From assembly GCA_022828425.1 (NCBI GenBank), contig CP094685.1, positions 3,016,046-3,080,045 on the forward strand: DNA of 64,000 nucleotides, written 5' to 3'. This DNA is from Candidatus Thiothrix sulfatifontis. Lineage in GTDB: Bacteria; Pseudomonadota; Gammaproteobacteria; Thiotrichales; Thiotrichaceae. The notes beneath the pieces are model-generated. The model made no database searches. It saw only the letters and a program-made list of their open reading frames with translations, and was not told the origin of the DNA. The translations under genes and the position numbers were made by a program. This document shows positions 30,846-61,415 of the stretch, in pieces; the stretch's first letter is position 1; every line of letters starts with the position of its first letter.

Positions 30846-30892
30846 ATTGGTGGGCCTACTAGGACTCGAACCTAGAACCAAAGGATTATGAG
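30846..30892 (-). repeat. attL: partial tRNA(CAT) copy (tRNA positions 32-76 plus 2 nt)
   Basis: 47/47 identity to 61338-61384. No 5-prime tRNA half is present. Confidence 0.9.
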
Positions 30893-31003
30893 AACTCGGA
30901 ACATTCAAACCCACAACCACGTAAAAACCCACTGGAAACCGACCGACACAGCACCCCCAAGCCCGCCAAACCCCGCCCAACCGCACCAGACCACGCGCCA
31001 GAA

Positions 31004-31035: not shown

Positions 31036-31092
31036 GGCGGCGGTTTGCGCTACCATCAAAAACGAACCAAAACCAAACATTCAGGAGGCGGA

Positions 31093-32361
31093 ATGCCCGA
31101 AAAAATCAATTTCACCAAGACCGTGTTGGATGCGCTCGAACCACCCAACAATGGGCGACGTTACGTCTATGACGCAAAAGTGAATGGTTTGCTGCTGATG
31201 ATTACCCCGCCGGGTACGAAGTCGTTTCAAGTGCGGAAACACCTCGACGGCAAGGCGGCGCGTATCACCTTGGGGCGATTCCCTGACATGACCGTGACCC
31301 AAGCGCGGGAAAAAGCCCTAGCAGAACTCTCGCTGATAGCCACCACCCGCCAAACGAGTTACCAGCAAAAGCAAATCAGGGCAGAGGGGCAGCAATTCGC
31401 TAACATGACCTTGGGAAAGGTGTTCAAGGATTATTTGAAATCGCATAAGAATCTGAAGCCCGTCACGATTGCCGATTATGAGCGTGCTGTCAGCGTCGGT
31501 TTTTCCGACTGGGAGTCTCTGCCGTTGATCAGCATCACCCGTGACATGGTAGAGGAACGTCACCGCGAACGTAGCCAACACTCAGAGGCACGGGCAAATA
31601 ACGAGATGCGCGTGTTACGTTGCATCTTCAATTACGCTGCTGAGGAATACTTTGATGACAATCAGCAACCGCTGATCAAATCCAATCCGGTCAAGCGCCT
31701 CTCTCACAGCCGCGCATGGAATCGTGTCGACCGCAAACAGACCATTATCAAAAATGACGAACTCCCGATCTGGTACGAAGCCGTGAACTCACTCCCGGAA
31801 TGGTACGGCGGCGCACTGGCTGAGAAGGCGCGGGTCTATTTCCTGCTAACCCTGTTCAGTGGCTACCGGCGCACGGAGTCCAGCACCTTGCTGTGGGAAA
31901 ATATCGACCTGATCAACAACACGATCAGGCTAGAAGACACCAAAAACCACCAAGCGCACACACTGCCGCTCACCACCTACACCCGCGATCTGTTGACACA
32001 GTGGCAAGCCCGCAGTGGACAGGGCAGCGGCTTAGTATTCCGGGCGACTGACAACACCTCGCCACTGTCCAGCGTGGAGAAAACGATAAAGGCCATTCGC
32101 ACCAGGTCGGGTATTCACTGGGAAATGCACGACCTGAGACGCACGTTCGCAACCACTGCCGAAAACATCGGTATTCGCGGTTACACCCTGAAGCGCCTGA
32201 TCAACCACAAGACCGGCGCGGCGGATGTGACCGGCGGATATATCGTGACCGACGTGGAAAGTCTCAGAGAACCCATGCAAACCATTACCGACAAGCTCTT
32301 AAGCCTGACATCCGGTAAACTATCCGCATCCAAGACCGCACCGGCGGCAATCAATACCTGA
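31093..32361 (+). CDS. int: Tyrosine recombinase, P4-type phage integrase (element A)
   Basis: ATG 31093 after AGGAGG (ORF track starts at 31045). N-terminal arm-binding-like GLLLMITPPGTKSFQVRK. C-terminal HDLRRTFAT...LINHK...GGY catalytic residues. Confidence 0.85.
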   Translation: MPEKINFTKTVLDALEPPNNGRRYVYDAKVNGLLLMITPPGTKSFQVRKHLDGKAARITLGRFPDMTVTQAREKALAELSLIATTRQTSYQQKQIRAEGQQFANMTLGKVFKDYLKSHKNLKPVTIADYERAVSVGFSDWESLPLISITRDMVEERHRERSQHSEARANNEMRVLRCIFNYAAEEYFDDNQQPLIKSNPVKRLSHSRAWNRVDRKQTIIKNDELPIWYEAVNSLPEWYGGALAEKARVYFLLTLFSGYRRTESSTLLWENIDLINNTIRLEDTKNHQAHTLPLTTYTRDLLTQWQARSGQGSGLVFRATDNTSPLSSVEKTIKAIRTRSGIHWEMHDLRRTFATTAENIGIRGYTLKRLINHKTGAADVTGGYIVTDVESLREPMQTITDKLLSLTSGKLSASKTAPAAINT

Positions 32362-39133: not shown

Positions 39134-40243
39134 GTATCATAAGTGCATAACCCGTTAATCGAGACGGGGTGCGGCTTTCCTCATAAGGTCAGAGGCAAGA
39201 TGTGGTAAAAAGCATCCCGAAAAACCACTAACGGGAGAGCCTTATGGCATACGGACATCTTACCTCTGAAGAGAGGCATTATATCGAAACACGGCACAAG
39301 ATGGAGGATTCCACCACGGCAATAGCGTTAGCACTGGGACGCAGCCAATCGACGATTAGTCGTGAACTGGGTCGTAACCGAGGTCAACGTGGCTACCGTC
39401 ACAAGCAAGCGCACAACAATGCTCAGTGCCGCCATGCAGAGAAGCCGAAAGCGGTCAAGTTAACCCCGGCACTGACGCTCAGCATTGATAGCCTGCTGGA
39501 ACAGCAATGGAGTCCTGAACAGATCAGCGGCAGACTAAAAGGAGAAGGCAAGGTGTGTGTTTGCCATGAAGCCATTTACCAGCATGTCCTGAAGGACAAG
39601 CGTGCGGGCGGCAAGCTGTACCTGAACCTGCGCCGCCATGCGAAGACCTACCGTAAGCGTTATGGCAGCACCACGGGCAGTGTCAAAGGCATCCCCAACC
39701 GGGTGGACATTGACGAACGCCCAGAGGTGGTCAATCAGCGTGAACGGCTAGGCGACTGGGAAGCGGACACCATGATTGGCAAGGGACACCAAGGCGCATT
39801 AGTGACACTGGACGAACGCAAATCCAAGCTACGTCTGGCGTTCCCAGTAGCGAACAAGACTGCTGAAGCGGTGACGTGCAGCATTATCACCTTGCTGTCC
39901 GGCTTCAAGGAGTGGGTACACACGCTCACCTTCGATAACGGCAAAGAGTTTGCCAAACATGAGCAAGTTGCCCAAGCCATTGGGTGCAAAACGTATTTCG
40001 CCAAGCCCTACCATTCGTGGGAGCGCGGGCAAAATGAGAACGCCAATGGGCTGTTACGCCAATACTTCCCCAAAGCAATGGGATTGTTGGACGTGACGAC
40101 TCGACAGGTGTTGGAGGCTGTACATAAACTCAACAACAGACCAAGGAAATGTCTGGGGTTCAAGACACCTTACGAGGTGTTCCGCGAGCTATCCGGCATG
40201 GATGCTGAAAAGTTGGTGGGTTATGCACTTATTACTTGAATTC
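39128..40243 (+). mobile_element. IS30-family insertion sequence
   Basis: Terminal inverted repeats GAATTCGTATCATAAGTGCATAACC (39128-39152) and its partner at 40219-40243 (21/25 match). The transposase stop lies inside the right IR. Confidence 0.8.
39244..40239 (+). CDS. IS30-family transposase
   Basis: 331 aa. N-terminal HTH (LTSEERHYIE...GRSQSTISRELGRN) and DDE region (WEADTM...TFDNGKEF...NENANGLLRQYFPK). Confidence 0.9.
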   Translation: MAYGHLTSEERHYIETRHKMEDSTTAIALALGRSQSTISRELGRNRGQRGYRHKQAHNNAQCRHAEKPKAVKLTPALTLSIDSLLEQQWSPEQISGRLKGEGKVCVCHEAIYQHVLKDKRAGGKLYLNLRRHAKTYRKRYGSTTGSVKGIPNRVDIDERPEVVNQRERLGDWEADTMIGKGHQGALVTLDERKSKLRLAFPVANKTAEAVTCSIITLLSGFKEWVHTLTFDNGKEFAKHEQVAQAIGCKTYFAKPYHSWERGQNENANGLLRQYFPKAMGLLDVTTRQVLEAVHKLNNRPRKCLGFKTPYEVFRELSGMDAEKLVGYALIT

Positions 40244-40396
40244 ACCAATCATTTTTCCCTTGATCGTGTGCCAAACCGTTTGATAGCCAGTATTGCCAGC
40301 CTAAAATATGAAAAATGGCAAGGTGAGGCTGTGGTGATAACAGAGAAACACGTTGAGGATTTAACAATAAATCAAGACCTTAACGCACCTTTTTAG
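40244..40396 (+). pseudogene. Cargo gene of element A, 3-prime part
   Basis: TNHFSLDRVPNRLIASIASLKYEKWQGEAVVITEKHVEDLTINQDLNAPF, in frame with 38471-39127 across the IS. Confidence 0.55.
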
Positions 40397-40639
40397 CCAA
40401 TACCGGATAGACCCCCCTAAAAAACTTGCACTCTATCCGGTCGGTAGAATCGGGGTTGTGTTGTTCAATGTTCCGTGGAGAACGCCAATCGAAACGATAG
40501 GCGAAAAAAAACCCCGAAACCGTATGAAGCGGCGGCGGGGTAGAAACAATTTTACGGAAGCAATTTTATGATACTCACCAGACACACACAACCAAAACCG
40601 AATGATTCCTCGAAATCATCCCAAAAAACAAAACACACC

Positions 40640-40684
40640 TTATCCGCTGATAAGTTGACCGAATCCCCGACTTTCCCCCATACT
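40640..40684 (+). promoter_or_regulatory. Conserved sigma70-like promoter with adjacent TTATC-N4-GATAA inverted repeat (element A)
   Basis: TTATCCGCTGATAA (40640-40653), -35 TTGACC (40655-40660), 18-nt spacer, -10 CATACT (40679-40684). Identical block at 53752-53796. Confidence 0.5.
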
Positions 40685-40690
40685 GCCCCT

Positions 40691-40784
40691 GTCGATGCAA
40701 AGCACCGGCAAACAGCAAAATTCTGGGACTATCATCCCTATATCTGGCGGCAAACCCGCCTTGACGACGCAGCGGGATTTTTTA
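40691..40784 (+). ncRNA. Candidate ~90-nt leader or small RNA ending in an intrinsic terminator with a competing upstream hairpin (element A)
   Basis: Hairpin 1 is GGCGG(40746-50)/CCGCC(40756-60). Hairpin 2 is CCCGC(40755-59)/GCGGG(40772-76) plus T6. The two share bases, so they are mutually exclusive. Confidence 0.4.
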
Positions 40785-40936
40785 TGCCCGTAGACTTCGC
40801 ACACAGCGGCTTTATGCCGGGTATGCGTGGAATACAACATGGTGTAAACCGAAACAAGCGCGTCGTGCTCCAGATAGACGATGATAGTACCCGGCAATTT
40901 TTGCCAAATATCAAAACTAAATCTGGAGCGGTCATC

Positions 40937-41284
40937 ATGACAGCAATCACTATGGGCAACACTGCCCGCACTCTATCGGCGTACCTGCCACACCTCCCTA
41001 TTGCACTGCCCAAAGCAGGCAAAAAACGCACCCCGATCACCGACCTTGTGTATGAGTCGACGCAAACCGGCCTGATCGTGTATCAGGACAACATCCCCGT
41101 CGCATGGGTATACCCCGGATACCACAAAGGTCAAATCGCCAACCAACCCGCAACGTGCAACTTTGTCGACGTCGCCTTTCACCGTCGCACCGAACACGGG
41201 GTGAACCTCGAAACACACGATTTTCTCACCCTGCAAGAAGCCCTCGACTTCGTGCGCACCACCTTCGGCGGAGGTGTGCAATGA
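40937..41284 (+). CDS. Conserved hypothetical protein (115 aa)
   Basis: ATG 40937 after GGAG. ORF track extends to 40568 across the promoter/terminator region. 5 differences from the B copy over 115 aa. Confidence 0.5.
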   Translation: MTAITMGNTARTLSAYLPHLPIALPKAGKKRTPITDLVYESTQTGLIVYQDNIPVAWVYPGYHKGQIANQPATCNFVDVAFHRRTEHGVNLETHDFLTLQEALDFVRTTFGGGVQ

Positions 41285-41514
41285 TCAGTTCGATAGACCG
41301 TGTTATCAGCATTGGGAAAGTGTACGAAGACCTCGAAAACCTACACAACGTGATGCAAGTGTGTGTGGATTCGATGCAATACCACAACGTCCTAGAGCTG
41401 GACAGTGTTAAGCAGGTGTTGATCAGCGCAACCGAAAAAGCCTATGCCGCCTACAACGCCGCGAAAGAAATTCATGATGAGATGCTGGCGGAATTAAAGG
41501 ACGGTGAAAAATGA
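41281..41514 (+). CDS. Hypothetical protein (77 aa), element A specific
   Basis: ATG overlaps the upstream stop (ATGA), with a GGAGGTG RBS. Position equivalent to the non-homologous 54390-54620. Confidence 0.45.
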   Translation: MISSIDRVISIGKVYEDLENLHNVMQVCVDSMQYHNVLELDSVKQVLISATEKAYAAYNAAKEIHDEMLAELKDGEK

Positions 41515-41822
41515 GCACGAAACTCGACACCAGCCCCAACCGCGCAACCCGTCGCATCCGTCGCAACCGTGACGCCATCCGCCGGGCGCAAATCATTGAG
41601 CAAATCCCGTCCTACACCGTCAACGGCGATCCGCTGCTAACCGAAAAAGAGTCGGCGGCCTATCTCGCAGTCGGCGCCCGCACGCTCGAAGCATGGCGTC
41701 ACCGCCACCCCGACCGCCTGCCCCACATCCGTGTCGGGCGCAACGTGCGTTATCGCCGCTCGGTGCTCGATAACTACCTGCAAGCCCAAACCGTCACCGA
41801 CGGGCGCGGGGTACGCAAATGA
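41511..41822 (+). CDS. AlpA/excisionase-type HTH DNA-binding protein with basic N-terminal extension
   Basis: 103 aa. LLTEKESAAYLAVGARTLEAWRHRHPDRLPHIRVGRNVRYRRSVLDNYL is an HTH_17/AlpA-like pattern. 4 substitutions from the B copy. Confidence 0.7.
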   Translation: MSTKLDTSPNRATRRIRRNRDAIRRAQIIEQIPSYTVNGDPLLTEKESAAYLAVGARTLEAWRHRHPDRLPHIRVGRNVRYRRSVLDNYLQAQTVTDGRGVRK

Positions 41823-42022
41823 GCCACCCACAAACCAACCTGACCCCGGCACTCGATTTGCACCCCGATCACATCGCCCTGACAGATGCGGAATGGATAG
41901 AGCGCCTAAGCAAAACCCATGCAGAAATCAAGCGCCGCCAGCAACTGGCGCAACCCGACAACAGTTATGCATTTTCTGCATACCACTATGTGCGTTGGAT
42001 TAACCGGAGCGTAGGACTATGA
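41819..42022 (+). CDS. Hypothetical protein (67 aa), homologue of 54925-55128
   Basis: Translationally coupled. Shared motifs include KRRQQLA-PDN-Y-FSA and RWINRSV. Confidence 0.45.
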   Translation: MSHPQTNLTPALDLHPDHIALTDAEWIERLSKTHAEIKRRQQLAQPDNSYAFSAYHYVRWINRSVGL

Positions 42023-42363
42023 ACGAACCAACATTATCACTAGTCAAGCTCGCACAAGAGCTTTGCAACAGCGGGCGCACCCCACAAGAGGCCGTCAGTG
42101 GTTTGCTGGTGGCAGCGCTCAATAATAAGAGCCTCGAATACCTGCAAGGTGCAGACGTTAATCAAGCCATTGCGGAACTGGAGCGCCGTTTCAGCGGCTA
42201 CCTGATCAAGCCATGGGAAAGCGCTCTACAAGAATTAGGCTATGCCCTCGAATGCATCCGCCAATTAGTAGCACTGGCAGAAGAGCACGAAACCGACGCG
42301 GCGGTGTGTGTACGCGTCGCGCAACGTTTCTTGAAAAAGTTTGAGGGCAACAACCATGGCTAA
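42019..42363 (+). CDS. Hypothetical protein (114 aa)
   Basis: Coupled ORF between the 67-aa gene and rep. Its stop overlaps the rep start. Confidence 0.4.
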   Translation: MNEPTLSLVKLAQELCNSGRTPQEAVSGLLVAALNNKSLEYLQGADVNQAIAELERRFSGYLIKPWESALQELGYALECIRQLVALAEEHETDAAVCVRVAQRFLKKFEGNNHG

Positions 42364-43639
42364 GCGTTTCGACCGTGACGAATGGGAAGATTCCCTCACC
42401 CGCATTAACCGCATTCTGGCAGAGAAACACGCCCGCGAAAGCGGCGCGTTTTCCGCTGTTTCTGGCGACGCTGGCGGCGCTGAATATCCCCCGTACTGTA
42501 ATACGGGGGGTTATGACGATTCCCACAAAATCAGCAAGTTACAAAAAACCGAAAAATCCTATGACCTGAATGTGACGGCTGTTGACTGGTTGCGCCTAAC
42601 CACTACCGACCTTGATGCATACGCGCAAACCATGGGCGATTTGCTGGCAGATGGCGGCCTTTTCAACCATGCCGATATGGATGTTAAATGGACAGATAAA
42701 GGAATGCACGGCTATGACTCTTCAGCCGCTATCCTGATATGGAAGGACAACGACTACCTGACAGTAGGCCACATTGCCAAGGCTGAATCAGGCCGCAATA
42801 AAGGCGGATTGCTGGAGCTAACCGGAACAGGTTGCAAAGTGCTGCAACTCGAACACCCTGCTTTGTGGCTGGAATTGTTCAACTTGTTGCAGTACCACGA
42901 CTGGCGAATTTCCCGCGTTGACGTGGCGTTAGACCTGCATGGCGAATACGCCCGCGAAATGGGCTACACCGTGCCAAGCCTGCTACTGCAAGCCAAGAAT
43001 AGCGGCCTGTTCCAGTCCGACCGCCTACGCAATCCCAACATGAAGCAATCATTTAGCATGGCGGGCGATTGGTCGGATTTAGCCATTGGCAACATTACCC
43101 CGCACACCTATGACCCGTTAGAGCATTGCCCGGCGGGTTTGACTGCCTATGTCGGCAACCGTAAAACAGCCGATGATTTTTTTCGGGTATACGAAAAAGG
43201 CAAAGAGCTATTAGGTGGCATGGCGGAACCCGAAAGCATAGATCGGGGCTGGATCCGCATTGAGCACGAAATGAGCCGCAAAGCCACCGGGCGCAATATC
43301 CCGCTTGAAGTCATGTTACGGCCTGATGCGTACTTTTGTGAAAGCCGATCAGGTGTGCGCACAATTCTCGATGCAGTCCGTGAACGCCAGTCATTAGAGG
43401 CCGCGCTTCAGTACCAGCGTGAACAATTCAAACGTGAGAAAGGCTTGCTGCTATTCAAAAAGCTGCATTGGGCGCGTCATTCTTACGGGCGCTTAGTGCG
43501 CACGCTGGTTGAACAAGGCATGGAAGCGAGCGAAATTGTCGATATGCTTTCTCGCATCAGCGGCTTAAAAGAATTCGTATTCGATCTGGCAGACCCACCA
43601 CAAGAATACGCGCGGTTTCGGGTAGAGGTGGCTGTATGA
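42356..43639 (+). CDS. Rolling-circle replication initiation protein, Rep_trans-like family
   Basis: ATG 42356. VDWLRLTT, HGYDSS, LELTGTGC, ISRVDVALD, GLTAYVGNRKTADDFFRVYEKGKE and WIRIEHEMSRKA fit the replication initiation factor (pT181 RepC/CTX RstA-type) pattern. Confidence 0.7.
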   Translation: MAKRFDRDEWEDSLTRINRILAEKHARESGAFSAVSGDAGGAEYPPYCNTGGYDDSHKISKLQKTEKSYDLNVTAVDWLRLTTTDLDAYAQTMGDLLADGGLFNHADMDVKWTDKGMHGYDSSAAILIWKDNDYLTVGHIAKAESGRNKGGLLELTGTGCKVLQLEHPALWLELFNLLQYHDWRISRVDVALDLHGEYAREMGYTVPSLLLQAKNSGLFQSDRLRNPNMKQSFSMAGDWSDLAIGNITPHTYDPLEHCPAGLTAYVGNRKTADDFFRVYEKGKELLGGMAEPESIDRGWIRIEHEMSRKATGRNIPLEVMLRPDAYFCESRSGVRTILDAVRERQSLEAALQYQREQFKREKGLLLFKKLHWARHSYGRLVRTLVEQGMEASEIVDMLSRISGLKEFVFDLADPPQEYARFRVEVAV

Positions 43640-43712
43640 GCAAGATATTAAAATTTACCTTTAGACTCGTTGGAACAACTTCCCACGCTCAAAAAACCGG
43701 AGGTGATGCGGT

Positions 43713-44315: not shown

Positions 44316-46014
44316 ATGAGACAACAGCAAAATCGAAGCCAAGAAAAAGAAATCATGGAAAAGCAATTAGAAGTACACAAAAAGCAAGACCGGCGCGGCG
44401 GTATGCTGCTGAGTTTGGGCGGTGTGTTGACCGCGTTAATGTACTTCATGTTCGAGAAGCACCTGTTTTTGGGTGAAGCAATCACGTGGTCGGCCTATTT
44501 CAACGAATGGCATTCGGCACTGGATTTTATCCTGATGTTTGTCATCGTGGTGATGAGCGCAATATTTTTGGCATGGGTAAAACATCATGCATACCTGCAC
44601 TTCGGTCTATACGGTTCCATCGGCCTGATCGTGTTCACCGTCATCGGGTTTGCCCTGTTCGCGGAATTCTTCAGTAGCAGCGCCAGCCAAGACACCAAAA
44701 GCCGGGTACTGCTGCAAAATGATCAAGCCTATCAGTCGACGCTCGCACCCGTCGCCAGCATCGCCCCTGCCCTGCCCACTGAGCAGCAACGCGGCGGCAA
44801 TTGCCAAGGCCGAACAGATGTATGCTCGCTGCATGGCGAACCTAGGCAAGCCGGGTTACAAGCATTGCGATGGCGACAAAGCCACCTTGAGCAGCCTCAA
44901 AGCCTCTGATGCAGCGGCGCTACAGGCAGCAAAAGAAATTGCAATACAGACCAACGCCGCCACCACCAAAATGAACCACGACCGTCAGGACAAGCTCAAA
45001 GCCGATTCATACAACGCGGTCATCGTCTCGATTGCGCAAGCGATCGGCTCACTCACTGTCACCGACTACAAGGACAACATCAAAGCCGCAACCGTGCTCA
45101 CCATGTTGATCGTGGCAATTGCTTTTGAAATCCTCCACCACTTCTTAGCTCACGCGAAAGAACGCGCTCAAAATGCCGTCTATGCAATTGAACTAGAACT
45201 AGCCAAGTACGAAGGCTCGGCACTGCCCCCAACATCCGACAACGTGACACCTGACAATGACGGCGCATTCAAACAGACCGGCGTCGGGTTCACTGCCAAC
45301 CTCGGCAAATCGCCAGCCGCGAACCACTCACCTACCCCGGCGGAAACGGACAAGCCCCTGTTCAAATACCAGCAAAAACCACCAGCCGATCACAGTGGTT
45401 TCGTTGGCTTCGTTAATACCAACAACCTGAAAAAATCCGCCAGTGACGAACGCCCATTCTACGGATTCAAGGATGCAAAAAAGCAATCAGCACTCGATGT
45501 GCTTAACCTTGCTCACGGATCCGAAGACCGGAAAACCCGCGAAAATCGCACCGTCAACAAAGAGCACTTGCCTACCCTGCCAGCCACTCAGAAAACAGGT
45601 TTGACCGGCATCAGAAATCCGGCATTAGGCAAAAATGAAGCGGTTTATGAGCTACCTCTCGCTGCTGAAAATCCACGTGTAATTACACGTGTACCGGATG
45701 GCGAAACCACGCTCGATAACGGCCTACAGGCGGCGCAAAAAGCACGTGTAATTACACGTGTACCCGACAACGAATCCACACTCGATAGCGACCTGTACGA
45801 AGAACTGAAAGCACGTGTAATTACACGTGAAATCAGTCCAACATTCAGACCTATCATTCAGTGGTTAGCGGGTAAGGCCGTCGGCAAAAACACCCAGCAT
45901 CGGCAACTGCTGGCAGCGGCGGCGCTCGACCGGATGCACCGTGAAAACGTGTTGACCCTGAACCCAGCGAACGACGGTTCGGGCATCAAAAAAGCCAAGT
46001 ACATTGTGGTCTAG
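44316..46014 (+). pseudogene. Large membrane-anchored protein, apparent +1 frameshift near 44778 (homologue of 58435-60744)
   Basis: ORFs 44316-44909 and 44650-46014 together are colinear with the intact B protein. The frame switch falls within about 44700-44790, with the single base A at 44778 the best-fitting point. Confidence 0.6.
45674..45829. repeat. Three perfect 18-bp palindromes CACGTGTAATTACACGTG at 69-bp period inside the coding sequence
   Basis: Copies at 45674-45691, 45743-45760 and 45812-45829. Each encodes RVITR within a 23-aa protein repeat. Confidence 0.9.
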
Positions 46015-46841: not shown

Positions 46842-46898
46842 GGCGGCGGTTTGCGCTACCATCAAAACCGAACCAAAACCAAACATTCAGGAATTAGC

Positions 46899-48180
46899 AT
46901 GGCTAAAAAAACGGCTGAAAAAATCAACTTCACCAAGACAGTGCTAGATGCGCTCGAACCACCCAGCAATGGGCGACGTTACGTATACGACTCAAAAGTG
47001 AATGGTTTGCTGCTGATGATCACCCCACCGGGTACAAAATCGTTTCAGGTGCGGAAACACCTCGAAGGCAGGGCGGCGCGTATCACCTTTGGGCGGTTCC
47101 CTGACATGACCGTGACGCAAGCGCGGGAAAAAGCCCTCGCAGAACTCTCGCTGATAGCCACCACCCGCCAAACCAGTTACCAGCAAAAGCAGGGCAGGGC
47201 AGAGGTACAGCAATTCGCCAACATGACATTGGGGAAAGTGTTCAAGGACTATCTCACCTCACACAAGAATCTGAAGCCCGCTACCATTGCCGATTATGAG
47301 CGTTCTATCCGCGTCGGCTTTCCCGACTGGGAGTCACTGCCGCTGAACAGCATCAGCCGCGATATGGTCGAAGAGCGTCACCGCGAACGCAGCCAACACT
47401 CCGAAGCACGGGCGAATAACGAAATGCGCGTGTTACGTAGCATTTTCAATTATGCCGCTGAGGAATACTTTGATGACAGCGGGCAACCGCTGATTAAGTC
47501 CAACCCGGTCAAGCGCCTCTCGCATAGCCGCGCATGGAACCGGGTAGACCGCAAACAGACCATTATCAAAAATGACGAACTCCCGATCTGGTACGAAGCC
47601 GTGAACTCACTCCCGGAATGGTACGGCGGCGCACTGGCTGAGAAGGCGCGGGTCTATTTCCTGCTAACCCTGTTCAGTGGCTACCGGCGCACGCGAGTCC
47701 AGCACCTTGCTGTGGGAAAATATCGACCTGATCAACAACACGATCAGGCTGGAAGACACCAAAAACCACCAAGCGCACACACTGCCGCTCACCACCTACA
47801 CCCGCGATCTGTTGACACAGTGGCAAGCCCGCAGCGGGCAGGGCAGCGGCTTAGTATTCCGGGCGACTGACAACACCTCGCCCCTGTCCAGCGTGGAAGA
47901 AGTGATTAAAGCCATCCGTGCCAGGACAAACATTCAATGGGCAATGCACGACCTGCGGCGCACGTTCGCCACCACTGCCGAAAACATCGGTGTTCGCGGT
48001 TACACCCTGAAGCGCCTGATCAACCACAAGACCGGCGCGGCGGACGTGACCGGCGGTTACATCGTGACCGACGTGGAAAGCCTCAGAGAACCCATGCAAA
48101 CCATCACCGACAAGCTCTTAAGCCTGACATCCGGTAAACTATCCGCATCCAAGACCGCACCGGCGGCAATCAATACCTGA
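46899..48180 (+). pseudogene. int: P4-type tyrosine integrase with a 1-nt insertion (about 47694)
   Basis: ORFs 46851-47870 and 47677-48180 are together colinear with intA. B reads GCGCACGCGAGTCC where A reads GCGCACGGAGTCC. Confidence 0.75.
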
Positions 48181-48189
48181 AAAGGAAGT

Positions 48190-48735
48190 TTGGAAATGAC
48201 CGACACCCCGAAAAAAACCTTAAGCATTACGCGCAAACCTGCTAACAGTGGCCCGGTAAATGCCACCGCTGGCACAATCCAACGCAGCGGCAAACGCATC
48301 ATCAGGCGTGACGAACTGCCGCAAGTGCAGCGCATCCCCGCACCCAAACCCAAACCAGCCGCCACCGCCAAACCCAAAAAGCCGCGCAAGCCACCCGCAC
48401 CTAAGAAGCAAGTCACACCACCGTCACAACTGAAAATCCGCGAATTGAACGACCGCCTAAACGCCTTCCGCGTCTGGTTCGACTTCCAACCGCTGGCAAT
48501 CGGCATTGAAAAGGAAATTTTCCGACTGGTGAACGAGGAGCACTTCCCCGGCGCAAGCAAAAGGGTTGTGCAAAAGCTGCTGAGGATGCACGTTAATCAC
48601 GGTGTCTACCTGCAAAACCTCAAACACGGCACAGACCGCTATCAGCTCGACGGCACACCCGACGGCACGATTGATGACTATCAGCGCCAGCTCGCAACCG
48701 ACACCCTGACAACACGCTTGCAGGGTAAGTGCTGA
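48190..48735 (+). CDS. ProQ/FinO-domain RNA-binding protein (element B copy)
   Basis: 181 aa, 4 substitutions relative to 32371-32916. Confidence 0.7.
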   Translation: MEMTDTPKKTLSITRKPANSGPVNATAGTIQRSGKRIIRRDELPQVQRIPAPKPKPAATAKPKKPRKPPAPKKQVTPPSQLKIRELNDRLNAFRVWFDFQPLAIGIEKEIFRLVNEEHFPGASKRVVQKLLRMHVNHGVYLQNLKHGTDRYQLDGTPDGTIDDYQRQLATDTLTTRLQGKC

Positions 48736-50644: not shown

Positions 50645-50869
50645 TTATAAAAAGCCGCGTTTTCTGTTCGTGTCGGGGTGTGAAACCATTTTATTAGCAG
50701 TATTGCCCCGGAATTTCATGGATTCGGTTTTTCCGTCTACCAAGTGCTTTATGTCGGTAAGCAATTCTATGGCGGATTTCTCAGAGCAGCGGGTATGCAT
50801 CTGGATGATCTGCAACAGTTCAGTTTCTTGGTTGTTAAAGGTGTGTGTTGTCATTTTGGAAGATGGCAC
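50645..50869 (-). CDS. Small hypothetical protein (74 aa), copy 1 of a tandem duplication
   Basis: GTG 50869 after GGAG (an ATG 15 nt downstream is also possible). Predicted helical. No recognised domain. Confidence 0.4.
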   Translation of the reverse strand: MPSSKMTTHTFNNQETELLQIIQMHTRCSEKSAIELLTDIKHLVDGKTESMKFRGNTANKMVSHPDTNRKRGFL

Positions 50870-51149
50870 GTTATATGCTCCTGTTTTGGTTGAGTTGACA
50901 GTTAAAAAAAGCCACAGTCTTTCTGTCCGTGTCGGGGTGTGAAACCATTTTATTAGCAGTATTGCCTCGGAATTTCATGGATTCGGTTTTTCCGTCTACC
51001 AAGTGCTTTATGTCGGTAAGCAATTCTATGGCGGATTTCTCAGAGCAGCGGGTATGCATCTGGATGATCTGCAACAGTTCAGTTTCTTGGTTGTTAAAGG
51101 TGTGTGTTGTCATTTTGGAAGATGGCACGTTATATGCTCCTGTTTTGGT
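50649..51149. repeat. Tandem direct duplication, ~243-bp units with 259-bp period
   Basis: 50672-50890 matches 50931-51149, and I saw only one mismatch by eye (CCCCGG versus CCTCGG). Confidence 0.85.
50871..51128 (-). CDS. Small hypothetical protein (85 aa), copy 2 of a tandem duplication
   Basis: Identical to copy 1 over the first 67 aa except N68D, then a different tail. A perfect TATAAT lies upstream on the minus strand at 51160-51165. Confidence 0.4.
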   Translation of the reverse strand: MPSSKMTTHTFNNQETELLQIIQMHTRCSEKSAIELLTDIKHLVDGKTESMKFRGNTANKMVSHPDTDRKTVAFFNCQLNQNRSI

Positions 51150-51196
51150 TAAGGTTTTTATTATATCGCTTATTGTTAATAATGGATATGAATCTA

Positions 51197-53542: not shown

Positions 53543-53751
53543 TCGTTTGGAGGTTTTTGGTAATTTTTGGTAGTTTTTGGTGATTTACGCGACTATAAGT
53601 AAAAAATCGGCACAATAAAAAAAGGCCAGCAATGCCGCTGGCCTTGGAAAAAAGTACAGCCGATATGATAACCAGACACCAACAAGCATTCAATCACCAA
53701 AACACGAAACCGAATGATTCCTCGAAATCATCCAAAAAAACCAAACACATC

Positions 53752-53796
53752 TTATCCGCTGATAAGTTGACCGAATCCCCGACTTTCCCCCATACT
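53752..53796 (+). promoter_or_regulatory. Conserved sigma70-like promoter with TTATC-N4-GATAA repeat (element B)
   Basis: Same 45-bp block as 40640-40684. Confidence 0.5.
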
Positions 53797-53802
53797 GTCC
53801 CT

Positions 53803-53896
53803 GTCGATGCAAATCATCGGCAAACAGCAAAATTCTGGGACTCTTATCCCGACACTAGGCGGCAACACCGCCAACACGATGCAGGCGGTTTTTTTT
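53803..53896 (+). ncRNA. Candidate ~90-nt leader or small RNA with competing hairpins and terminator (element B)
   Basis: GGCGG(53858-62)/CCGCC(53868-72) versus CCGCC(53868-72)/GGCGG(53884-88) plus T8. Confidence 0.4.
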
Positions 53897-54045
53897 CGTC
53901 TGTAGACTACGCAAGCGGTTTTATGCCGGGTATGCGTGGACTACCAGAGGAAGCAATTCCGAATAAGCGCGTCGTGTTCCTAGTGAGCGATAAGAGTACC
54001 CGGCAATTTTTGCCAAATCTTAAAACTCAATTAGGAGCGGTCAAC

Positions 54046-58434: not shown

Positions 58435-60744
58435 ATGAAAAACGACAACAACTTCAACGCGGGTTTGGCCTACAGCGATTACAAAACCCGCAAACTGTTC
58501 TACATGCTGGCGGCCTTTGTCGCTTTTGCCATGAGTTCCTACTTTGTGGTCGGCTACCTTGCCGGGCATTTGCGCGTATTAGAATGGGATGGCTCGCAGT
58601 GGATGAATGGCTTAGTTGCCATTGGCATTACAGCGGTTATGACCGGCTACCAATTTATCCTTTACGGCGCGGGCAACGTCGCAGGCGGCAAAAAAGCGAC
58701 CATTCTAGCGGTCGTGGTGGCGGTGTCCTTCTCAATGCTCTCTGAGGTCGGGCAAGGCATGGAACGCGACAACATTCGCATGGAAACCAAAAGCCAAGAA
58801 TCCCCGACCTACAAGGCGATTGTGGGCGCGATTAGTACCCCTGCCGGTGCAAACCCCTATTCGGCTGATATGCAAGCCGCTGAAGTGAAGTTAGCGCAAT
58901 GCGAAACCCGCTTAGCGCAAGGCAAGGAAAAGCACTGTGAGGGCAGCAAAGCGCGTGTGGAGGCCGTCAATAAAATGATAGCCAACCATGCAGCGACCAG
59001 CCAACAGCAAGCCCTAGCCCTCGCTGCAACCGCTAAAACCATGGAAAAGGACGAAAGCAACTACCATCCCCTAGTGAACCTGTTACGCGAAACCTTCGGC
59101 GCATCCGGTACAGTTGGCTCGTTTCTGGTTTCCCTCACCCTGATAGCCTTTTTCGAGTACGCGTTTCACTATCTGGGTGGGCAGTTCGCGGCGGCGCGTG
59201 AATACCTCATGGCACATGGCTATGACGTTACCCGCAACCTACGCCAACCACCGCGCAAATTTGATGGCAGCATCAGCACCTACTCCGATAAATCCGAATC
59301 CGCACCCATGGCAGCGCTTAACGGAGCCGCGAACTCTGCCAAACAAACCGTGGGCGAATACGCAGCGAAAATTGAGGAAGGTTTAAAGGCATCCCCTGAA
59401 GTCATCGCCACCGAGTATGCGCGTGCGCAACATGCCCGCGAACAATCAGCCGCAATGATGGGCGACAAATTGCAGGCCGTTGGGGACAAGATCGAAGCCG
59501 CGATTAACCCGCAAGTCAGCTTTTTAAAACTGCTGATTGCCGAAAATCAAGCGCGTGTTAATCACGGCATGGAAGCAAATCATGAGAATGTGAGAAATAC
59601 GATTGAATATGTATTAAAACGTCACCAACAAACAACTGGCAACGATACCAGTCATGCCGACGTAAACAAACTGACTGATTTAGTCATGAAGCACTTGAAG
59701 CCGTCAAAACCTGAAGTTGCTGAACGTCATCACCTGTATTGCACGCTGGCAAATGGGCGAAAAATGGATAAAGTTTTTAAAGCACACGAAGCCGATGCAG
59801 CGCTCAAAGAATGGCAGCGTTTAAATAAAACTGGCATTGGTGAAGATGGCAACCCCATAACCATGCTGGGATTACATCAAACCCATTTTGAAACTGAAAA
59901 GGAGGCTGAAGCGTTTGAAAAAAAGATCGAAGCCGAGAATCTAAAATGGCAATCCGACGCGCCAGTGATTAAATCGGTAACAGGCTTTAAACAATCAGCC
60001 GATCAAGCCGCGAATGTCAGCCGATTGTATCAGGCAGAAACGGCAAAGCATGAAGCGGGCGAAGTATTTAACCAATCCCCTACCCCGGCAATCAAGCGCC
60101 AGTCCGTGGCGGAAACTATCCATGCGCTAGTGGATGCGGTTAAAAAATCCGGCGCAACAACTGAGGCCGATATTCAGGCGGCGGTATTCGATGGCTATTC
60201 AAAGCTCTTTAATCCGGCTGACTTGGATGATGGCGACTTGCTCAAAGTAGCGGCTAAGATTGCCAAGAGTTCGGCATCTGCTACCCCTGCCCCGGTCATG
60301 CCATTGCAGCAACGCACTGGTGCAACTGGCCTGCACAACCCCGCGTTAGGCACGGCTGAAGCGGTCTACCCGCTACCATTGCCAACTGCCCTACACGCGC
60401 GTGTAGAGGGGTTACACGCACCCAACACGCAACCCTTGCCAACTGCCCTACACGCGCGTGTAGAGGGGTTACACGCACCCAACACGCAACCCGTGTTACA
60501 CGCACCACACGCGCGTGTGGGGGGTGAAGTAGGGCGGTTTGAAGTGGGCAGTATCGAAGCCTATGAAGCGGCGGATTCTGCCAATATAGGAAGTCGTGTA
60601 GGTTGCCCACAGTGTGGTGCTGAGTTCGTTAAGCGCAATCAACAACACCGTTTTTGCTGCAAAGATCACCGTTTTGCATGGCACAACGAACGCGACCCGA
60701 AACGGCAAGAGTTCATTAACAGTCGCAAGCCGAAAGCGATATAA
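58435..60744 (+). CDS. Large membrane-anchored protein (769 aa) with coiled-coil middle, 19-aa repeats and C-terminal Cys-rich zinc-ribbon-like tail
   Basis: N-terminal TM cluster. Region TG-TG..NPALG..EAVY-LPL is shared with the A homologue. C-terminus CPQCGAEFVKRNQQHRFCCKDHRFAWHNE. Confidence 0.55.
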   Translation: MKNDNNFNAGLAYSDYKTRKLFYMLAAFVAFAMSSYFVVGYLAGHLRVLEWDGSQWMNGLVAIGITAVMTGYQFILYGAGNVAGGKKATILAVVVAVSFSMLSEVGQGMERDNIRMETKSQESPTYKAIVGAISTPAGANPYSADMQAAEVKLAQCETRLAQGKEKHCEGSKARVEAVNKMIANHAATSQQQALALAATAKTMEKDESNYHPLVNLLRETFGASGTVGSFLVSLTLIAFFEYAFHYLGGQFAAAREYLMAHGYDVTRNLRQPPRKFDGSISTYSDKSESAPMAALNGAANSAKQTVGEYAAKIEEGLKASPEVIATEYARAQHAREQSAAMMGDKLQAVGDKIEAAINPQVSFLKLLIAENQARVNHGMEANHENVRNTIEYVLKRHQQTTGNDTSHADVNKLTDLVMKHLKPSKPEVAERHHLYCTLANGRKMDKVFKAHEADAALKEWQRLNKTGIGEDGNPITMLGLHQTHFETEKEAEAFEKKIEAENLKWQSDAPVIKSVTGFKQSADQAANVSRLYQAETAKHEAGEVFNQSPTPAIKRQSVAETIHALVDAVKKSGATTEADIQAAVFDGYSKLFNPADLDDGDLLKVAAKIAKSSASATPAPVMPLQQRTGATGLHNPALGTAEAVYPLPLPTALHARVEGLHAPNTQPLPTALHARVEGLHAPNTQPVLHAPHARVGGEVGRFEVGSIEAYEAADSANIGSRVGCPQCGAEFVKRNQQHRFCCKDHRFAWHNERDPKRQEFINSRKPKAI
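60379..60520. repeat. 2.5 x 57-bp in-frame repeats carrying three perfect 16-bp palindromes (CTACACGCGCGTGTAG x2, CCACACGCGCGTGTGG)
   Basis: Palindromes at 60391-60406, 60448-60463 and 60505-60520. Additional ACACG motifs occur in each unit. Confidence 0.9.
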
Positions 60745-61337: not shown

Positions 61338-61384
61338 ATTGGTGGGCCTACTAGGACTCGAACCTAGAACCAAAGGATTATGAG
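61338..61384 (-). repeat. attR: direct-repeat copy within the intact tRNA(CAT)
   Basis: Identical to 30846-30892. Confidence 0.9.
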
Positions 61385-61415
61385 TCCTCTGCGCTAACCA
61401 TTGCGCCATAGGCCC
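61340..61415 (-). tRNA. tRNA with anticodon CAT: probably tRNA-Ile2 (ileX-like), alternatively elongator tRNA-Met
   Basis: 76-nt cloverleaf: acceptor GGGCCTA/TAGGCCC, D arm GCGC-AATGGTTA-GCGC, anticodon arm GAGGA-CTCATAA-TCCTT, T arm CTAGG-TTCGAGT-CCTAG, encoded CCA. G1-C72 excludes an initiator. Confidence 0.9.

Follow-up and report, generated by a model that had tools for sequence, protein, structure and literature searches.

A candidate variant of P4-type RNA immunity in integrative satellite-like elements of Thiothrix

The comparative observations presented here are consistent with a model in which integrative satellite-like elements of Thiothrix carry an immunity and early-control region laid out on the plan of satellite P4 (PLE, seqA-CI-seqC and eta-kil), and thus with a new variant of P4-type RNA immunity; we put the probability of this reading at roughly 60%. 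The window, by which we mean the whole 64,000-nt stretch of Candidatus Thiothrix sulfatifontis DNA that was analysed, holds the region in two tandem elements, A and B (Table 1). As predicted from the sequence, a promoter lying inside a long open reading frame (ORF) would start a structured leader of 246 nt at about 40691, which extends to the ATG at 40937 (11 homologues, 9 complete). Read in the same way, the order of parts within this leader is a 5' hairpin, a seqA-like segment, the P3 hairpin and a terminator with its U-run, a conserved central domain, a seqB-like segment, and a seqC-like segment that includes the SD of orf115.

P4-type RNA immunity is found in enterobacterial satellites and in P1-type phages, and its relatives have been found by two or three Rfam models. 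A case in the Thiotrichales, with the P4 layout in an element that is invisible to these models, would mean that the strategy may be far more widespread than model-based surveys suggest.

Table 1. Positions of the features discussed, numbered within the window (a point in the strand column marks features listed for neither strand)
Feature	Element	Position	Strand	Details and basis
Long ORF, 238 aa, eta-like	A	40568-41284	+	Conserved ATGATA start upstream of promoter; in frame through promoter, leader and orf115
Upstream inverted repeat GAATGATTCCTCGAAATCATCC	A	40600-40621	.	Arms ATGATT/AATCAT; possible protein-binding site
Palindrome TTATC-N4-GATAA (TTATCCGCTGATAA)	A	40640-40653	.	Candidate operator; abuts -35 hexamer
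Sigma-70-type promoter TTGACC-18 nt-CATACT, PLE-like	A	40655-40684	+	Promoter scan: -35 TTGACC 40655-40660, 18-nt spacer, CATACT 40679-40684; inside long ORF
P1, 5'-terminal hairpin	A	40691-40709	+	At predicted transcription start; 4/6 pairs compensatory, 100% of cells paired
X, near-invariant GCAAAAUUCUGGG plus variable 9-mer (ACUAUCAUC in A)	A	40715-40736	+	5' strand of Px (with 40880-40904); part of seqA-like segment
Y, SD mimic UAUCUGG	A	40741-40747	+	Direct repeat of SD side 40921-40926; 5' strand of Py (with 40868-40876)
P3 hairpin GGCGG-CAAAC-CCGCC	A	40746-40760	+	Candidate anti-terminator; -8.2 to -9.4 kcal/mol
Terminator-like hairpin and T-run	A	40755-40783	+	CCCGC 40755-40759 with GCGGG 40772-40776, A, T6 40778-40783
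Central domain	A	40765-40865	+	Closing helix 40765-40770 with 40860-40865, long arm, short hairpin 40840-40851
seqB-like segment	A	40868-40904	+	Anti-SD CUCCAGAUA 40868-40876 and X' GAUGAUAGUACCCGGCAAUUUUUGC 40880-40904; pairing, covariation
seqC-like segment	A	40909-40928	+	P9 3' arm 40909-40913 and SD side AUCUGGAG 40921-40928; SD GGAG 40925-40928
orf115, nested in-frame short ORF	A	40937-41284	+	kil-like in position only; GGAG 9 nt before ATG
Copy of the region, palindrome to SD	B	53752-54045	+	Alignment with A; ATG 54046
Palindrome (TTATCCGCTGATAA)	B	53752-53765	+	
Promoter	B	53767-53796	+	
X	B	53827-53848	+	
Y	B	53853-53859	+	
P3	B	53858-53872	+	
T8 run	B	53889-53896	+	
seqB-like segment	B	53977-54013	+	
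SD	B	54034-54037	+	

A conserved promoter and terminator-like unit

The preliminary description, made from the sequence of the window, had singled out a palindrome, a promoter, a GGCGG/CCGCC hairpin and an overlapping terminator with a T-run, and all of these lie where it had placed them, in both tandem elements. Its remark that the terminator pairing is kept with different bases holds as well (CCCGC..GCGGG-T6 in A and CCGCC..GGCGG-T8 in B). The motifs were thus correctly read, but they cover only the first third of the 246-nt leader, and their partner segments lie downstream.

Copies A and B are homologous (87% identical over 207 nt), so what they share cannot count as independent evidence; such evidence is provided by further homologues, found in Thiothrix genomes and metagenomes. 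The leader set comprises 11 homologues, 9 of them complete, and the counts given throughout vary with the recovered length of each leader. The flagged motifs recur in up to nine further Thiothrix-type homologues, depending on leader recovery, and covariation analysis over this larger set, which had been proposed as a check, supports both of the leader folds described below (11 homologues, 9 complete). Leader lengths differ by just 3 nt, and two leaders, L004 and L017, carry compensated frameshifts. A metagenome scan returned 13 loci, among which L004 is the sole true homologue; the remaining loci were discarded as unrelated eukaryote-like repeats. No match was found when 40560-43640 was compared by BLAST with phage and plasmid collections or when viral contigs were scanned with the invariant 19-mer.

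In the eight loci that reach the promoter, the hexamer positions, the 18-nt spacing and the 5-nt gap to P1 are constant (8/8); the sequence of the spacer and the palindromes differ among loci while position and spacing stay the same. The candidate operator, joined to TTGACC, gives exactly two matches, compared with 0.06 expected. It is doubly changed in L002 (TTATG-N4-CATAA), and L004 and L018 have different palindromes that overlap the promoter. The inverted repeat farther upstream has just two occurrences within the window, at 40600 and 53712; L002 and L024 retain it, L001 has an altered form, and other palindromes stand in its place in L004 and L018.

Preservation of the two hairpins in additional homologues, which the preliminary description had named as decisive for its reading, was found for both. 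P3 (GGCGG-N5-CCGCC) is identical in 10/10 homologues and, because it never varies, comes without covariation evidence for or against it. Its 3' arm also serves as the 5' arm of the terminator, the stem of which is intact in 9/10 homologues in two register classes (CCCGC/GCGGG and CCGCC/GGCGG), with one mismatch in L019, and the T-run is 6 to 8 T long in all of them. The two hairpins are near iso-energetic, at -8.2 to -9.4 kcal/mol for P3 and -7.7 to -9.5 kcal/mol for the terminator, with the exception of L019 (-2.3). By usual standards the terminator is weak, having a 5-bp stem and a loop of 10 to 12 nt, and the L019 version is impaired; a loop of this length exceeds the limit of 8 in the terminator scan, which for this reason did not report the site. 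The predicted terminator-like site falls at +85 to +93 from the leader start. Searches for RNA-seq of the organism turned up nothing beyond metagenome and metatranscriptome contigs; the metatranscriptome contigs, of low depth and from relatives, span the T-run and may stem from RNA that reads through it or equally from DNA carried over. We set aside another possible pairing, in which the invariant stretch joins the 3' arm and U-run of the terminator, as it exists in the A-type class only and is not conserved.

Two mutually exclusive folds of the leader

Based on covariation among the homologues, we conclude that the leader has two mutually exclusive folds, each maintained by compensatory changes, with the SD hidden in one and free in the other. 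The seqB-like segment pairs either with X and Y (the ON fold) or with the SD side and the P9 3' arm (the OFF fold), and compensatory changes total 28 base pairs over the two folds.

The OFF fold, in which the anti-SD pairs with the SD of orf115, has 56 pairs by RNAalifold, 18 of them compensatory versus 9.0 +/- 1.8 in shuffles (0/500), and 96% of its cells are paired versus 36-43% when the partners are slid. Four compensatory pairs fall in helix 8 (anti-SD:SD) and likewise four in helix 9, and in L022 the SD variant GGAA is matched by UUCC. The central domain corresponds to RNAalifold helices 4-7; helix 7 covaries in 4/4 pairs, helix 4 shows one double change, and the short hairpin has a GNRA-like loop.

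In the ON fold, X and X' form the 22-bp helix Px, Y and the anti-SD form the 7-bp helix Py, and the SD is left free. Over the 22 pairs of Px, paired cells amount to 96.5% and compensatory changes occur in 5 pairs, a level reached by 0-1 of 500 shuffles, and the duplex amounts to -21 to -28 kcal/mol in 9/9 leaders. For Py, 97% of cells are paired, 5/7 pairs are compensatory, and the covariation score is 0.556 versus 0.164 in shuffles (0/500). Y also covers the first two G of P3. The minimum free energy (MFE) structure of the whole leader includes both Px and Py in 7/9 homologues. Taken alone against its own leader, the invariant stretch is unremarkable (-13.5 to -15.7, the 5% shuffle level being -16.0), and the Px signal emerges only once the adjoining variable 9-mer is included.

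The supported helices contain 53 G.U versus 7 A.C, and the structure therefore belongs to the + strand. Strand-specific structure would also fit single-stranded DNA, for example a single-strand origin for the rolling-circle Rep or a packaging site, and the elements do encode rolling-circle initiators, either Rep_trans or gpA-type. We give a DNA element of this kind very little credence, however, given that the best-supported helices pair the orf115 SD with the anti-SD and the anti-SD with the SD mimic, that the region begins exactly at the conserved promoter and ends at the start codon, that G.U-type pairs are frequent, and that P4 has the same plan at the RNA level.

Hypervariable addresses and specificity

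The address columns of the alignment are 48% identical, versus 82% in the remaining leader. From these alignments we conclude that the pairing nucleotides change in concert at three sites, so that each element has its own address, including the tandem pair A and B: in element B, the variable 9-mer of X is ACUCUUAUC and Y is CACUAGG, both different from A. Duplexes of seqB with the cognate X and Y average -34.1 kcal/mol and non-cognate duplexes -21.0 kcal/mol. For A with B, the value is -21, against -36.6 and -37.0 for the self pairs; cross-pairing is thus about 15 kcal/mol weaker.

Could a purely cis-acting translational riboregulator, with no trans RNA and no immunity, account for the leader? 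The change of fold, during or after transcription, might then depend, for example, on how fast the RNA folds, on temperature, on a bound protein or on cutting of the 22-bp Px by RNase III, and the terminator-like hairpin would have a small attenuating role or none. In favour of this, the covariation behind both folds holds regardless of whether pairing occurs in cis or in trans, the MFE structure corresponds to the ON fold in 7/9 leaders, and the elements yielded no other target (the best site for the invariant stretch, with both elements scanned, is at -18.8 kcal/mol, inside the shuffled-seed range). We nevertheless consider this explanation rather unlikely. The pairing segments vary far more than the remaining leader does (0.48 versus 0.82 identity), and each change in them requires matches at three sites; with A/B cross-pairing weaker by some 15 kcal/mol, such variability is more easily explained by selection for distinct specificities among co-resident elements. 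Moreover, the invariant U-run and the two-register terminator stem suggest a real 3' end, and the layout closely matches that of P4, which acts in trans.

If the reading as P4-type immunity is taken further, we can speculate, tentatively and with more doubt than conviction, that immunity in these Thiothrix elements may be written as a programmable RNA code. A shared scaffold would carry addresses of a 9-mer and a 5- to 7-mer, in three co-varying copies each, and these addresses would decide whose RNA terminates or silences which early operon, such that related satellites stacked at the same tRNA site would confer no immunity on one another. A ProQ/FinO protein encoded by the element itself would act as matchmaker, and beyond the Enterobacterales the system would represent either a distant relative of P4 immunity or its convergent counterpart, with an intrinsic terminator replacing Rho. 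Nine complete leaders share one scaffold but differ in address, each address being matched in triplicate, and a single genome holds two of the nine in tandem; together they amount to a natural experiment on specificity.

The long ORF, orf115 and their element context

The preliminary description had held that full translation of the long ORF would argue against its reading. We conclude from the alignment that this ORF (40568-41284) is under selection to stay open, its translation being a prediction, but the reading stands, as P4 nests eta and kil in the same manner (PMC10111431). The orf115 frame has 0 in-frame stops in 11/11 homologues, whereas stop trinucleotides number 41 and 39 in the other two phases (31 distinct alignment columns), and the ATGATA is in frame in 6/6 homologues. 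The predicted arrangement is thus that of a promoter, 87 nt inside a long ORF, with a shorter ORF nested in frame. Conservation of ATGATA has a second possible cause, because on the opposite strand it reads TATCAT, a good -10 hexamer. No promoter was identified upstream of the long ORF, where element A has an IS30-family insertion just upstream. A minus-strand ORF was rejected, with stops in nearly all minus-strand frames.

The open frame and the in-frame ATG would also be expected if the region simply encoded the N-terminal half of a normal protein of 238 aa, with the promoter, hairpins and helices arising by chance or as by-products of recent recombination. We regard this as highly improbable. 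The extension has a dN/dS of 0.5-1.4, versus 0.15-0.5 in full-length comparisons of orf115; L004 runs for about 18 codons in another frame with its nucleotides kept; and a 19-nt stretch is invariant, would-be third positions included. The 28 compensatory base pairs and the conserved GGAG before the internal ATG argue in the same direction, as do the gene callers, which never chose the long form at the homologue loci.

As the first gene of the orf115-orf77-alpA-rep operon, orf115 has 11 homologues, none bearing a name. Pfam and PHROGs gave no match for orf115 or for the N-terminal extension, and the AlphaFold model of orf115 (pLDDT 75) had no significant match in PDB or BFVD. Based on Pfam and PHROG assignments, the element genes include an integrase, a ProQ protein, an alpA-like HTH protein and a rolling-circle Rep, and relatives carry P2-type gpO, gpN and gpM. 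The ProQ domain (PF04352) was detected in element A with an E value of 3.7e-12; element B has a near-identical ORF in the same position (48190-48735), assigned by its likeness to the ORF of A, on which the domain scan was made. ProQ is also present in L024 and L025/L026, and its co-occurrence with the leader is 4/4 among elements with enough context. The leader RNA is a candidate partner for the ProQ/FinO proteins of mobile elements.

A proposed mechanism

In the P4-type model that we favour, transcripts from the internal promoter would either stop at the U-run, as an RNA of about 93 nt bearing X and Y, or read through. An RNA bearing seqB, in cis or in trans, would pair at X and Y; the anti-terminator would thereby lose two pairs, and termination would be favoured. 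Pairing of seqB with seqC would keep orf115 from being translated, and the alpA-rep operon along with it. Transcripts from farther upstream would instead be translated from the ATG at 40568 through the leader, and this would melt the terminator and both folds and leave expression insensitive to control, as with Eta translation in P4. A trans effect could go either way, towards repression (the P4 case) or towards activation (the IsrK case), and a role for ProQ/FinO is possible; because the ON fold in cis is favoured or equal in energy, we infer a repressing trans RNA rather than reading it off the folds.

IsrK of the Salmonella Gifsy-1 prophage is a dual small RNA and mRNA that activates translation in trans (PMC4825925), and its layout, a short terminated RNA together with a read-through mRNA of two structures (PMC4825925), has a predicted counterpart here. 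The Thiothrix leader would likewise yield a promoter-proximal small RNA with a candidate intrinsic terminator, and transcripts reading past it would form an mRNA that can be inactive or active in structure, its 5' part pairing with segments far downstream near the RBS; alternative structures of this type, using the 5' small-RNA part, are what covariation supports as OFF and ON. We can therefore imagine that the RNA of about 93 nt, through X and Y, pairs in trans with seqB on read-through mRNAs, exposes their SD and so acts as an activator and not as an immunity factor. That X and Y free the SD by pairing with seqB is in keeping with such a role. Yet a trans copy seems redundant when each read-through mRNA has its own favourable cis X and Y, the isrK model has no match, and the nesting in a long ORF, which is not described for IsrK, is explained by the P4 scheme and not by the IsrK scheme; we judge activation of this kind improbable. 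The leader offers a tidy example of a single RNA that has two folds backed by covariation and yet keeps a translatable frame, and in it the interplay of termination, translation and pairing is directly testable.

Comparison with P4 and other known systems

The sequence of satellite P4, run as a control, shows how far the parallel extends. In P4, a long ORF (8812-8168) contains the promoter, with the kil ATG at 8365 in frame; an isrK-type unit (8692-8615) consists of a 5' hairpin, seqA and a terminator with U7; CI lies at 8507-8420; and seqC overlaps the SD of kil. The order is the same in both systems: long ORF start, internal promoter, 5' hairpin, SD mimic (seqA), hairpin with U-run, a gap of 85-110 nt, anti-SD (seqB), a gap of about 45 nt, the SD of the nested ORF (seqC) and its ATG. 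Both regions stand upstream of alpA-type and replication genes in an integrase-bearing satellite-like element, and in each of them seqB is complementary to seqA and to seqC, which are direct repeats of each other. All three segments are present on the same strand in the Thiothrix leader, where the central one (40868-40904) is complementary to the upstream one (40715-40747) and to the RBS-overlapping one (40909-40928), with compensatory changes throughout. The nesting of kil within eta, which the long ORF and orf115 parallel, is part of the P4 immunity mechanism (PMC10111431).

The preliminary description had compared the unit with the CI RNA of P4. The layout does parallel the seqA/IsrK-like 5' unit of the P4 leader, but the flagged unit is not CI-like and has no Rfam match. 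The C4 (RF01695), isrK (RF01394) and c4-a1b1 (RF03163) models gave no match over the whole window at the gathering score, none in 40300-41100 at E <= 10, and none in the two elements at E <= 5, while the P4 positive control scored 74.9, 60.8 and 44.1 bits, respectively (E 1e-9 to 1e-14). The Thiothrix leader thus differs from P4 in having no detectable sequence or covariance-model similarity to it. It differs further in that its seqB lies in a stem pairing in cis with seqC or seqA, whereas seqB of P4 lies in the loop of the excised CI RNA, and in that complementarity extends over 22 + 7 bp with hypervariable addresses, compared with about 9 nt in P4. The candidate stop is an intrinsic terminator-like hairpin that would compete with an anti-terminator, whereas termination at P4 timm is Rho-dependent (PMC10111431). 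Finally, the replication proteins are gpA or Rep_trans in place of the alpha primase, the hosts are Thiotrichales and not Enterobacterales, and the Thiothrix elements encode a ProQ/FinO protein.

A trp-type attenuator likewise has an overlapping anti-terminator and terminator followed by a U-run, and translation across the leader probably matters in Thiothrix too. In contrast, the Thiothrix leader lacks both a short leader peptide and regulatory codons; its frame, free of stops throughout, opens ahead of the promoter and continues into the gene that follows.

FinO-domain chaperones bind 3' ends made of a GC hairpin and a U-tail. The predicted short Thiothrix RNA would end in such a structure, and, as in FinP/FinO and RocR/RocC, a FinO/ProQ-domain gene lies on the same mobile element (4/4); the complementary partners of the Thiothrix system, however, lie on the same strand and not on opposite strands. 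In this last respect the leader resembles c4/icd-ant of P1 and P7, where antisense RNA and targets are on the same strand under one promoter and the target covers the RBS, although c4/icd-ant has another structure, belongs to a phage and not to a satellite-like island, and finds no model match in Thiothrix. A few nucleotide differences set heteroimmunity in that system, and the addresses of the Thiothrix leaders would set specificity as those differences do.

A leader with two conserved, mutually exclusive folds

The preliminary description had placed a TTATC-N4-GATAA palindrome, a promoter, a hairpin, and a terminator within 40640-40784, and each is found at that place in element A and at its counterpart in element B, the two tandem integrative elements. 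Because the A and B leaders are homologues with 87% identity across 207 nt, agreement between them is by itself weak proof. Further complete leaders come from genomic loci (L001 and L002/L025), T. winogradskyi (L024), a metagenome contig (L004), and assembly contigs (L017-L019), and partial leaders come from L016, L020, L022, and L023. The -35/-10 position, the 18-nt spacer, and the 5-nt gap to the first hairpin are constant across these leaders, even though L004 and L018 differ in the sequence of the spacer and palindromes. In L002 the palindrome carries a double change, to TTATG-N4-CATAA; these palindromes are plausible candidate operators. The GGCGG-N5-CCGCC hairpin (P3, a candidate anti-terminator) is without any sequence variation among homologues, and the terminator stem that shares its arm, also proposed previously, keeps its pairing in 9 of 10 (registers CCCGC/GCGGG or CCGCC/GGCGG), which represents one or two evolutionary events. 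The two hairpins are nearly iso-energetic, and 6 to 8 T follow the terminator stem in all homologues. The only transcript data, low-depth metatranscriptome contigs of relatives, cross this T-run.

Conservation and structure extend past the unit first described, running throughout from the predicted RNA start to the ATG of orf115. RNAalifold applied to 11 sequences gives a fold of 56 pairs (the OFF fold) with 18 compensatory pairs, compared with 9.0 +/- 1.8 in shuffles (0 of 500 reaching 18), a control that ignores relatedness among homologues and so does not provide a probability. Sliding the partners by 1 to 3 columns preserves relatedness, and the outcome is equally clear (96% of cells paired versus 36 to 43%). 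In the OFF fold as modeled, the Shine-Dalgarno (SD) sequence of orf115 is sequestered.

A second set of pairings (the ON fold) is incompatible with the first and equally well supported. Segment X is complementary to X', which contains the P9 5' arm and the P10 region, and the resulting helix, Px, comprises 22 bp at -21 to -28 kcal/mol in 9 of 9 complete leaders, with 96.5% of cells paired and 5 compensatory pairs, values reached by 0 to 1 of 500 shuffles when relatedness is uncorrected. Segment Y copies the SD-adjacent sequence (in A, UAUCUGG versus AUCUGGAG) and pairs with the anti-SD to give Py, in which 97% of cells are paired, compensatory pairs number 5/7, and the covariation score is 0.556 versus 0.164 in shuffles (0 of 500, relatedness again uncorrected). 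Formation of Px and Py is predicted to leave the SD free. When the whole leader is folded for minimum energy, the ON fold is predicted for 7 of 9 homologues; for the remaining 2 it lies within ~4 kcal/mol of the minimum. G.U pairs outnumber A.C in the supported helices (53 versus 7); thus, the leader structure belongs to the plus strand. X and Y upstream are repeated directly by the P9 3' arm and SD downstream, with the central segment (anti-SD and X') complementary to both.

Within a leader that is otherwise conserved, the pairing nucleotides vary most (mean pairwise identity of 0.48, versus 0.82 for the rest and 0.99 for the invariant stretch), and their combinations all differ among the 9 complete leaders. 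Duplexes of X and Y with the central segment average -34.1 kcal/mol when cognate and -21.0 kcal/mol when non-cognate; for A and B, the self duplexes have -36.6 and -37.0 and the cross duplexes -21.1 and -21.7. Given that one change of such an address requires matching changes at three sites, specificity between molecules would appear to matter, and we infer, from this indirect evidence, that some pairing occurs in trans. Many metagenome contigs among L016-L023 end within the leader (from approximately column 3 to column 247 of the alignment), and L016 combines an L024-type 5' anti-SD arm with a B-type 3' SD side, a pattern compatible with collapsed assembly, or chimeras, of co-existing elements that have a common scaffold.

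An open frame through the leader

Translation of the long ORF had been expected to speak against an RNA reading. The frame is indeed kept open: in-frame stop trinucleotides are absent from the leader in 11 of 11 sequences, versus 41 and 39 in the other two phases, which fall in 14 and 17 separate columns of the alignment; the random-phase chance of 31 columns all avoiding one phase is ~(2/3)^31. The 84 to 138 nt upstream of the leader also hold 0 in-frame stops, versus 2-4 and 0-3 in the other phases, and in 6 of 6 loci a conserved ATGATA ahead of the promoter shares the frame, its six distances all being divisible by three. The leaders measure either 258 or 261 nt, and in L004 and L017 frameshifts are corrected over at most a few tens of bases. 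Yet the peptide is barely constrained, with a dN/dS of 0.5-1.4 for the extension versus 0.15-0.5 in full-length orf115 comparisons. L004 reads ~18 codons in another frame with its nucleotides retained, and gene callers always place the start at 40937, after a conserved GGAG. We conclude from these comparisons that the translatability of the leader probably matters and that its protein sequence probably matters little.

Upstream of the long-ORF start are 3 or 4 direct repeats per element, spaced by 9-11 nt and element specific in sequence, followed in B and T. lacustris by a -10-like hexamer (TATAAG or TATTAT); the region could be an upstream PLL-like regulated promoter or an iteron array. The GC-rich stem-loops next to ATGATA have an A-run before them and only 1-2 U after, and thus resemble minus-strand terminators. 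On the opposite strand ATGATA reads TATCAT, which in B is preceded by TTGAAT 17 nt upstream, and a very short leftward RNA from this region is possible; alternatively, the stem-loop is possibly the 5' hairpin of an upstream transcript.

Table. Positions of the features discussed (window positions unless a locus or sequence is named)
Feature	Position	Remarks
Element A	~30.9-46.5 kb	
Element B	~46.5-61.3 kb	
tRNA-Met gene	61340-61415, minus	adjoins tandem A + B
Repeat of tRNA-Met 3' part	30846-30897	
Integrase gene, A	31045-32361	intact
Integrase gene, B	46851-47870 and 47677-48180	seemingly frameshift-split
IS30-family transposase gene	39244-40239 (flanks to ~40440)	inserted in A, directly upstream of control region
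Tandem 69-nt and 57-nt repeats	45661-45798 and 60368-60481	in large ORFs near each element's right end
259-bp tandem duplication	50661-51153	99% identical, accessory region of B
Direct repeats, B	53549-53598	TTTTTGGTAAT / TTTTGGTAGT / TTTTGGTGAT
Direct repeats, T. lacustris L025	9519-9565	TTAGGGCATC x3
Direct repeats, T. winogradskyi L024	5513-5550	AAAAACCGG-type x4
GC-rich stem-loops	40505-40545 and 53617-53646	immediately upstream of ATGATA
Long ORF	40568-41284	
Leader, A	~40691-40937	predicted RNA start to ATG of orf115
Start of invariant stretch (A-R-N triplets)	40710-40722	
X	40715-40736	near-invariant GCAAAAUUCUGGG + variable 9-mer
Y	40741-40747	SD mimic
U-run	40778-40783	
P1	RNA start	OFF 5' hairpin, well supported
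P7		small OFF hairpin, GNRA-like loop, well supported
P8	40868-40875 : 40921-40928	OFF, CUCC/UUCC with SD region, well supported
Anti-SD in Py	40870-40876	
X'	40880-40904	
P9		inner variable OFF stem enclosing P10, well supported
P10		GGCAA/UUGCC hairpin within P9
Related elements	L024 1-12414, L025 2965-15847	integrase, ProQ, toxin-antitoxin modules, gpO/gpN/gpM, leader, orf115, alpA-like gene, gpA-like rep
P4 long ORF (X51522)	8812-8168, minus	contains promoter TTGCCT..TATAGT
P4 isrK-type unit	8692-8615, minus	5'-end hairpin, seqA AAUUCACAGGCGA, GC hairpin + U7 at end
P4 CI	8507-8420, minus	seqB CCUGUGAAG
P4 seqC	minus	UAUUCACAGGAGG, kil SD region
P4 kil ATG	8365, minus	in frame with 8812, 65 codons to stop

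Elements that carry the leader

A and B alike encode an integrase, directly followed by a ProQ/FinO-domain protein and then by accessory genes that include toxin-antitoxin pairs. Downstream of the leader, both have orf115 (115 aa), a 76-77-aa ORF, an AlpA-like HTH_17 protein, small ORFs, and a rolling-circle replication initiator (Rep_trans in A, gpA-like in B). Homologues of orf115 are confined to Thiothrix genomes and to assemblies from wastewater, sludge, or biofilm. Elements of the same type in T. lacustris and T. winogradskyi carry P2-type scaffold (gpO, with no match in T. winogradskyi), capsid (gpN), and small-terminase (gpM) genes and have no portal, large terminase, or tail genes; judged by this gene content, the Thiothrix family therefore looks like a phage satellite, and the L024/L025-type elements may belong to a previously undescribed family of satellites of P2-like phages, one that lies outside Enterobacterales. 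ProQ co-occurs with the leader in each of the 4 elements whose context is sufficient, which makes ProQ a candidate partner of the leader RNA.

Where A has the IS30-family insertion, B and relatives instead contain a gene that encodes a C-terminal HTH-like tail, together with direct repeats; a similar CCCCCCTAAAAAA(C/G)TTGC end occurs at this place in L001, which suggests a repeated insertion target. Each of the tandem 69-nt and 57-nt repeats holds a perfect palindrome (CACGTGTAATTACACGTG; CTACACGCGCGTGTAG); these repeats could function as an origin or a pac site, or could encode a protein repeat.

Proposed mechanism and comparison with P4

We posit that transcripts from the internal promoter would be untranslated up to 40937. 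Because the GGCGG arm shares its first two G with Y, pairing of X and Y with central-segment RNA should weaken the anti-terminator, upon which CCGCC would base-pair with the GGCGG/GCGGG that lies downstream, ahead of the U-run. Transcripts that read through would hide or expose the SD of orf115, the head gene of the alpA-rep operon, while transcripts initiated farther upstream would escape both controls, with translation beginning at 40568 and crossing the leader. By analogy, the trans-acting species could be either the ~93-nt terminated 5' RNA (IsrK-like and activating) or the central-segment RNA (CI-like and repressing). Three A-R-N triplets, AAC AGC AAA, open the invariant stretch, and the U-run forms the 3' end of the predicted short RNA; such triplets and a U-run end are features of Hfq distal-face and proximal-face ligands, respectively.

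In satellite P4, a constitutive promoter lies within gene eta, and its transcript soon terminates owing to interactions between RNA segments at CI and seqA; Kil corresponds to a truncated Eta, and full-length Eta is made only from the upstream late promoter, its translation blocking termination (PMC10111431). Relatives of CI and seqA are detectable by the Rfam models C4 and isrK (PMC10111431). We subjected the P4 sequence X51522 (minus strand) to the same analysis as a control. Order, spacing, and nesting agree part for part with the Thiothrix leader, including seqA as an SD mimic. C4/isrK-type models give 44-75 bits on P4 and no match on the Thiothrix leader, even at permissive thresholds. 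Of the likeness to P4 CI RNA suggested in the preliminary description, the P4-type plan stands; membership in the C4 or isrK RNA families is not detectable. The details also differ: the central segment is a stem in the Thiothrix leader and the loop of an excised cloverleaf-like RNA in P4; the complementarity is far longer in Thiothrix and partly hypervariable; and the predicted early stop site, unlike that of P4, is an intrinsic terminator competing with a candidate anti-terminator hairpin. Given a matching plan, silent models, and different details, we file the Thiothrix leader, by analogy, as P4-immunity-like in its working.
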